Source of the DNA: Candidatus Moraniibacteriota bacterium
Lineage (GTDB): Bacteria; Patescibacteriota; Minisyncoccia; Moranbacterales; UBA1568
Assembly (NCBI GenBank): GCA_963778555.1
Contig: CAVZUR010000005.1
Span: 33,756 to 97,755, forward strand
DNA length: 64,000 nt
Direction: 5' to 3'
Every line of letters begins with the position of its first letter. Within the stretch, counting starts at the first letter, position 1. Under the pieces are notes generated by a model. The model saw only the letters and a program-made list of their open reading frames with translations, had not been told where the DNA came from and searched no databases. A program made the translations under genes and the position numbers. Shown here piece after piece: positions 27,477-29,392 of this stretch.

Positions 27477-27875
27477 ATGCGAATCGCGGAAGCGCAACTC
27501 GTGAAAGCAGTTGATGAGCTCCAGCGGGAGGGGCAGCTTGTCGGGACCGAACTTGCCGCGGCCTTTGCGAAATTTCTCCGTCGCAAGCGGCTTTCCCGAC
27601 GCGTGGGGAAGATCGGCCGAGCACTCGATACGTATGCTGAACAGTCATCGGGTGTACTCTCCGTCACCGCGACCAGCGCGCGTGCGCTCTCGGTCAGTGA
27701 GCGGCAGCGAGTCGAGGAAGCGGCCGCGCAGCTCCTGGGGCAGCCGGAGCACGGGGTCGCGATCGAGTTCCGCGAAGAGACAGATCTCATCGGCGGCCTC
27801 CGGCTTGAAACGACAAACACTCGCCTGGATGGGACGGTTGCCCGTGCACTCAAAGAACTCCGTAAATCATTGTGA
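27477..27875 (+). CDS. atpH: F0F1 ATP synthase subunit delta (short, 132 aa)
   Basis: Position between atpF and atpA; an OSCP-like helical sequence; overlaps the atpA start. Confidence 0.7.
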   Translation: MRIAEAQLVKAVDELQREGQLVGTELAAAFAKFLRRKRLSRRVGKIGRALDTYAEQSSGVLSVTATSARALSVSERQRVEEAAAQLLGQPEHGVAIEFREETDLIGGLRLETTNTRLDGTVARALKELRKSL

Positions 27876-29392
27876 CATTCACGCCTATGCCGAATCCACT
27901 CATCGAAGAGCTGAAAAAGGAACTGACTCGGTTTCATCATGCGGTGGAGCGTGAGGCGGTCGGAACGATTCTAGAGGTCGGCGATGGAGTCGCTCGCGTC
28001 GCCGGTCTGTCAGAAGTCATGGCGTCGGAGATGGTGGAATTCGAAGACGGGACGCTCGGCGTGGCGCTCAACCTCGAGGAAAGCGAGGTCGGTGTGATGG
28101 TCATGAGTGAAATGGGCGAACTTTCCGAAGGGAACGCGGGTGAAAGCGACGGGGCGCATTCTGTCCGTGCCGGTCGGTGCTGGCGTCATCGGCCGCGTTG
28201 TGAATGCGCTCGGCAAGCCGATTGACGGCAAAGGCGAGATCAAGGCGGAGAAATATTATCCCGTCGAAAAAATCGCGCCAGGCGTTATCACTCGCCAATC
28301 GGTCCATCAGCCGCTCCAGACCGGCATCAAGGCGATCGACGCCCTGATCCCGATCGGCCGCGGCCAGCGGGAACTCATCATCGGCGACCGGCAGACCGGA
28401 AAGACCGCTGTAGCGATTGATACCATCATCAACCAGAAAGGTCAGGATGTGATTTGCATCTACGTCGCAATCGGACAGAAGGAATCGAAAGTCGCTCGTA
28501 TCATGGCCGAGCTCGATAAAGTCGGAGCGATGGACTATACCACCATCGTCGTGGCTGGTGTCTCCGAACCGGCGGCGCTTTCATACATTGCGCCCTATGC
28601 CGGGTGCGCGATGGGCGAGTATTTCATGGACCAGGGCAAAGACGTGCTTGTGGTCTATGATGATCTTTCCAAACACGCGGTTGCATATCGGCAGATTTCC
28701 CTTATTCTCCGCCGCCCGCCCGGTCGCGAGGCGTATCCGGGCGATGTTTTTTATGTTGCACTCGCGTCTTCTGGAACGCAGCGCCAAGCTAAATGCCGAA
28801 GCATGGCGGCGGTTCGATCACTGCGCTGCCGATCATCGAGACCCAGGCCGGCGATGTCTCCGCCTATATTCCGACGAATGTCATTTCCATCACTGACGGC
28901 CAGATCTATCTCGAATCGGATCTGTTCTATAAAGGCATCCGGCCAGCCCTGAATGTCGGCATTTCGGTCTCGCGCGTCGGTTCCGCGGCGCAGATCAAAG
29001 CGATGAAACAGGTCGCGGGAACGCTCCGGCTCGATCTCGCGCAATTCCGCGAACTGGAATCGTTTGCCCAGTTCGGTTCCGATCTCGATGAGAAGACGCG
29101 CTCCCTCATCGAACGGGGCCGCCGGGCCGTCGAGGTGCTGAAGCAGCCTCAGTACGCACCGCTCGCGGTCGAAAGTGAGGTTGCACTTCTCTATGCGCTT
29201 TCCCGCGGTCATCTCGACGATGTCGCGGTCGAAGCAATCAGCCGATTCGAAAAAGAGTTCCTTCTCTCTCTCGAGAGCGATGGGCAGAAAGTTGTGGCGG
29301 CGATCCGTGCCGAGAAAGCGCTGACAGAAAACGTTGAGACACTTCTCAAGGATCACATCGCTTCATTCAAAAAGGGATTTATCGTCACGTAG
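27872..29392 (+). pseudogene. atpA: F0F1 ATP synthase subunit alpha, reading frame broken by three +1 shifts (near 28140, 28757, 28799)
   Basis: Alpha-subunit sequence is recovered across four ORF fragments (27872-28225, 28107-28952, 28558-28896, 28793-29392): N-terminal beta-barrel, Walker A GDRQTGKT, and C-terminal domain. Conservation is otherwise intact. Confidence 0.85.

Follow-up and report, generated by a model that had tools for sequence, protein, structure and literature searches.

The locus analysed here raises the question of whether a bacterium has lost the alpha subunit of its ATP synthase, or whether the gene is broken only in its assembled sequence. We considered a continuous stretch of DNA of 64 kb (hereafter, the window), which by best protein matches is Moranbacteria/Moraniibacteriota-like (CPR/Patescibacteria), its gene order agreeing with that of the contig L081. 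The operon atpBEFHAGDC occupies the region at 25.8-32.2 kb, with the same gene order as in the relatives L081 and L082. According to the original prediction, atpA carries three +1 frame shifts while the other seven genes of the operon are intact, owing either to a locally error-prone assembly or to an inactivation of atpA that would leave the ATP synthase non-functional.

No uninterrupted single reading frame for atpA is present in the given DNA, and three +1 changes of frame are required to read the gene through. Its ORFs in the window are located at 27872/27887..28225 (frame 2), 28107..28952 (frame 0), 28558..28896 (frame 1) and 28793..29392 (frame 2). As reference for a frameshift-aware protein-to-DNA alignment we used P0001, a 499-aa protein that is the closest homologue of the atpA product, and obtained one-base insertions at about 28130, 28758 and 28801, with no further event. 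At the DNA level, each insertion faced a single-column gap in the relatives: the window reads GAAGGGAACG at site 1, versus GAA-GGAATG in the relative, TATGTTGCAC at site 2, versus TACGTT-CAC and TATGTG-CAC, and GCCGAAGCAT at site 3, versus GCCG-AGCAC and GCGG-AGCAT. In the DNA alignments, none of the three insertions was present in any of L081, L084 and L001. The 14 codons that separate sites 2 and 3 are identical to the homologue, hence the assignment of the frames is not a matter of chance. The coordinates of these and of the other features considered are given in Table 1.

Table 1. Features of the window, with positions counted from its first nucleotide
Feature	Position	Strand	Observation
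metG site	21713..21716	+	extra A, AAAA vs AAA in relative; last ~40 codons out of frame
atpB, atpE, atpF, atpH	25870..27875	+	intact; single-frame full-length tblastn matches to L081 proteins
atpA, F1 alpha subunit	27887..29392	+	499-aa protein after removal of three bases
Literal fragment 1, 112 aa	27887..28225	+	alpha residues 1-82, then out-of-frame tail
Literal fragment 2, 281 aa ORF	28107..28952	+	alpha residues 83-290 with Walker A GDRQTGKT, then out-of-frame tail
Site 1	28130..28132	+	GGG run vs GG in relative; extra G or adjacent A; +1
Site 2	28755..28758	+	GTTG vs GTT/GTG in relatives L084, L081; extra T or G; +1
Literal fragment 3, 199 aa	28793..29392	+	alpha residues 305-499
Site 3	28798..28801	+	GAAG vs GAG in relatives; extra A or G; +1, original frame restored
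atpG, atpD, atpC	29399..32155	+	intact; single-frame full-length tblastn matches to L081 proteins
leuS	33761..36288	+	~12 single-base insertions/deletions plus in-frame stop
Giant tandem-repeat gene, indel-bearing part	46379..60273	+	at least 15 single-base indels vs own repeat copies

The three +1 shifts, each due to a single inserted base and with the net frame restored, were therefore found as predicted, by the ORFs, by the frameshift-aware alignment and by the one-column gaps in the DNA of the relatives. Some details had to be changed. The predicted end of the gene (29392) was retained, while its true start is the ATG at 27887 and not the GTG at 27872. At the first junction (indicated by a slash) the shift was correct and the residues are ...SEG/TRVKATG, not EGNAG/VKATG; at the second, again with a correct shift, the protein reads ...GDVFYV/HSRL, the relatives having Val, not Leu. 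As for the homopolymer context, whose inspection had been proposed, none of the three sites contains a long run, and a T6 run is located 5 nt upstream of site 2. As for the seven partner genes (atpB, E, F, H, G, D, C), all of them were indeed intact, each aligning full-length and in one frame with the proteins of L081.

The longest ORF of atpH (27303..27875, 190 aa) has a TTG start and overlaps atpF; by homology its start is at 27477, which gives a 132-aa protein. Upstream of the operon, the tatD-atpB interval contains three Lys/Glu-rich ORFs of 395, 143 and 158 aa (23596..25765, + strand). The 395-aa ORF, the one of the three that was scanned, had no Pfam match. These ORFs are missing from the closest relative, L081, which has a single 91-aa ORF there; similar ones occur in the JGI contig L087.

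When the gene is read literally, the Pfam domains are interrupted at the breaks. The N-barrel ends at profile position 62 of 69 in fragment 1, fragment 2 covers ATP-synt_ab at profile positions 1-144 of 213 only, and fragment 3 carries positions 158-213 of the same profile together with the C-terminal domain. A functional alpha subunit made of three polypeptides was rejected, as the breaks fall inside the beta-barrel and the nucleotide-binding domain. An alternative genetic code was rejected too, as the fault lies in the frame and not in stop codons. Both the 112-aa and the 199-aa fragments stand in the public NCBI/ENA record of the 228,612-bp contig, so the frameshifts were not generated by cutting the window.

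After removal of the three bases, the product is 499 aa long and 92% identical to P0001, with gap-free junctions. It has the three-domain architecture of AtpA, i.e. an N-terminal beta-barrel (PF02874, ATP-synt_ab_N), a nucleotide-binding domain (PF00006, ATP-synt_ab, 1-213/213) with the Walker A motif GDRQTGKT, and a C-terminal helical domain (PF00306, ATP-synt_ab_C, 1-126/126). We aligned it with 131 full-length relatives (495-505 aa, mostly 499), in which 258 columns were invariant. The corrected alpha subunit deviated at none of them, and in a leave-one-out control the relatives themselves deviated at 0.22 invariant columns on average. In three near-invariant columns the protein of the window has minority residues, which relatives also show.

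The same was observed for substitution rates. Compared with L084, a close JGI relative that covers residues 209-499, atpA gave dN 0.012 and dS 0.63 (dN/dS about 0.02). Compared with L081, pN was 0.00-0.06 in each of the four frame segments, with saturated pS, and the segment of 14 codons between sites 2 and 3 had zero amino-acid changes. We thus looked for relaxed constraint in the corrected atpA, by invariant columns and by dN/dS, and did not find it. On the basis of its sequence, the corrected gene almost certainly encodes a normal alpha subunit of an F-type ATP synthase; the real gene would be ordinary and intact, and the operon functional.

The view that only atpA is broken holds within the atp operon and fails across the window, where we counted about 30 further single-base indels, distributed in patches and comprising both insertions and deletions. 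The damage of leuS is far heavier than that of atpA. Between the breaks the amino-acid sequence of LeuRS is highly conserved, its in-frame stop looks like a compensating pair of indels, and -1 corrections, at non-slippery sites, are also required. In metG (20408..21842, + strand) the window reads CTGAAAAGA where the relative has CTGAAAGA, and the literal ORF extends to 22030. The MetRS insertion, as well as all three insertions of atpA, can be read as a +1 miscount of a run of 1-3 bases.

A third case is a giant gene of more than 6,000 codons (44172..63737 and beyond, + strand), rich in Thr, Gly and Ala and with repeated frame changes, which is without Pfam match and probably encodes a surface protein. 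Its repeat units, up to 2.7 kb long, are 97-99% identical, and the causes of its frame changes can thus be read directly from the repeat copies. The indels are of both signs, mostly outside homopolymers and often with adjacent substitutions; they also form patches, with five of them within 120 nt (52576-52692) and five within 155 nt (60119-60273). Other long genes of the window, i.e. those of IleRS (996 aa), GlmS and GlyRS, and atpD, are clean. Elsewhere in the window (1768..3551, + strand), neighbouring ORFs have Pfam hits to the alternative oxidase family (AOX, E=2e-8) and to multicopper oxidase domains, oxygen-related enzymes that are unusual in a CPR bacterium.

Independent sequence of the region was available as Logan contigs of run ERR11593397, an accession for which a literature search gave no result. 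L083 matches the window at 26206-27664, L085 at 28930-30791 and L086 at 30762-33803, so that 6,333 nt of the operon are covered with zero gaps. Identity is 99.1% for L083 and 99.2-99.9% for L085 and L086, and at these values (99.1-99.9%) the contigs come from a strain that is not certainly the same as that of the window. Almost all the mismatches are synonymous third-position changes. They are not evenly distributed: 13 of the 15 differences of L085 are packed in 28960-29098, inside atpA, the first of them lying exactly one k-mer into the contig. Run ERR11593397 therefore demonstrably contains a second, very closely related haplotype, which diverges inside atpA. The cluster itself (window 28960..29098 vs L085:31-169), with 13 synonymous differences in 140 nt followed by 1.7 kb of almost identical sequence, resembles what a second strain, or recombination within a part of atpA, would leave.

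The k-mer contigs end at either edge of 27665-28929, where all three atpA sites lie, and again at the start of leuS. For this stretch of 1.27 kb no Logan contig was obtained by exact-protein look-ups, which reached the flanks only. Guessed start variants of the middle atpA fragment were absent from the record (exact look-up). With the corrected residues 1-357 as query nothing was found above 95% identity, and a 95-aa query around site 1 yielded no more than fragments of 105-167 aa, with identities of <=71%; both searches may have missed partial proteins of about 170-325 aa. In JGI metagenome contigs, neither of two DNA patterns (degenerate or exact), one for sites 2 and 3 and one for site 1, had a match even with an extra base tolerated, and the matches listed in a scan of genome contigs with conserved peptide patterns were all relatives at <=72% identity. 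Exact look-ups of tatD and glmS, whose Logan contigs might have extended to the sites in MetRS and LeuRS, returned no exact record. Taken with the positions of the contig ends, the affected stretches coincide with strain divergence and with breaks of the assembly graph, which suggests that mixed haplotypes or low depth are behind the failures of the consensus.

As regards the type of data, tandem repeats totalling about 17 kb are resolved in the contig; their units are as long as 2.7 kb, at 98% identity, and exact repeats reach 485 nt. Such a resolution is unlikely with short reads, and we infer that the contig comes from long reads. It is documented that long-read assemblies contain indels which fragment genes (PMC12007338, PMC8103633).

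We consider the three insertions of atpA, with a probability of about 0.88, as residual consensus errors of the assembly and not as mutations of the organism. The judgement is made from sequence comparison. Indels of a similar kind also affect further genes of the window, conserved or essential ones among them (about 12 in the LeuRS gene, one in that of MetRS, at least 15 in the giant gene), and without its three extra bases atpA has a fully conserved coding sequence. In fact, a cell cannot have lost both LeuRS and MetRS, so the indels in these two genes must be technical, and those of atpA fit the same class. A locally error-prone assembly, one of the two options of the original prediction, is thus supported both by the patchy indels elsewhere and by the unrelaxed constraint of the corrected gene. 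Against this reading, the net frame is restored by the three insertions, for which the chance is about 1 in 4 if +1 and -1 events are equally likely, and the errors are not uniform, with atpD and the genes of IleRS, GlyRS and GlmS being clean.

The errors may have arisen as follows. The contig would belong to a Moranbacteria-like CPR bacterium and derive from a metagenome assembled from long reads; its consensus would be good over most of its length, with patches that were left unpolished or were mis-polished. These patches would probably be at low coverage, or would contain the merged reads of two co-occurring strains. Single bases would be gained or lost inside the patches, 27665-28929 in atpA being one such stretch.

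If the insertions were instead real in the organism, which we regard as a small chance, either the alpha subunit has just been lost with its seven partners intact or three non-canonical +1 recoding events are needed; we would then have a free-living or episymbiotic Moranbacteria-like CPR bacterium without alpha subunit or with recoding. A very recent inactivation of atpA in this strain, with an operon left without alpha subunit, would agree with the presence of the insertions in the deposited record and with the fact that CPR bacteria of small genome do lose functions, and after a first frameshift the later ones would be neutral. However, in bacterial pseudogenes each indel is accompanied by about 5-10 neutral substitutions. 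Under this ratio, which is here an assumption, three indels would bring 15-30 substitutions and about 6-12 changes in invariant columns; none is seen (Poisson P <0.003), and 0 of 258 invariant columns changed together with a dN/dS of about 0.02 leave the predicted inactivation of atpA, and with it a non-functional ATP synthase, unsupported. Bacterial pseudogenes are also biased toward deletions, whereas all three atpA events are insertions. Moreover, the seven partner genes are intact, and the same logic would make pseudogenes of LeuRS and MetRS, a loss that is not viable when an aminoacyl-tRNA synthetase is single-copy. We consider inactivation as quite unlikely.

The extra bases could also be real and be bypassed by programmed +1 ribosomal frameshifting or by transcriptional slippage, with production of the full-length alpha subunit. 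That all the shifts are +1 with a restored net frame, and that the T6 run precedes site 2, would fit; yet the shift sites are not conserved, no relative being frameshifted at any of them. The sites lack an in-frame stop, as well as any slippery codon followed by such a stop or by a slowly decoded codon, and past them the zero frame continues for about 30, 65 and 32 codons. They have no common motif and none has a long homopolymer, and LeuRS also requires -1 corrections at non-slippery sites. We regard recoding as extremely improbable. Slippage at the T6 run, taken as a separate candidate, was rejected because it would replace the invariant Tyr289. As a further alternative, the insertions might be carried by only a small share of the cells or reads (another strain, or a sub-population that is defective) and have been taken up by the consensus or by a chimeric assembly path. 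The two haplotypes of run ERR11593397 that diverge inside atpA, and the breaks of the k-mer contigs at either edge of the affected stretch, are in its favour. Nevertheless, three independent frameshifts in a single minor haplotype, without any amino-acid change at conserved sites, are as unlikely here as in a pseudogene, and the other indels of the window require a general technical cause anyway, so that a minority origin appears very unlikely.

Errors of the assembly consensus remain the preferred reading, and they have a practical consequence. If the record is taken at face value, annotation pipelines and metabolic reconstructions would call the F-type ATP synthase, LeuRS and MetRS non-functional or lacking. 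Claims of gene loss from this contig should wait until its frameshifted genes have been repaired or re-polished.

Among known systems, atpA shares with the programmed +1 frameshifting of prfB/RF2 the need of a +1 shift for a full-length protein, and differs from it in having three sites in one gene, no conserved site or stop, and -1 events elsewhere on the contig. As in the frameshift pseudogenes of reduced bacterial genomes, several frame-breaking indels occur in one gene with intact neighbours; unlike in these, there is no amino-acid decay, atpA has insertions only, and essential aminoacyl-tRNA synthetase genes of the same contig are broken likewise. Compared with the typical indel errors of long reads (Nanopore or PacBio CLR), those of the window are strongly patchy and many of them are outside long homopolymers, with a platform that we infer only as long-read. 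The other traits are the same as those described for such errors (PMC12007338, Kastor; PMC8103633, Nanopore MAG frameshifts): conserved genes are split into adjacent ORFs, many genes of one contig are affected, and the contig is long, with its repeats resolved.
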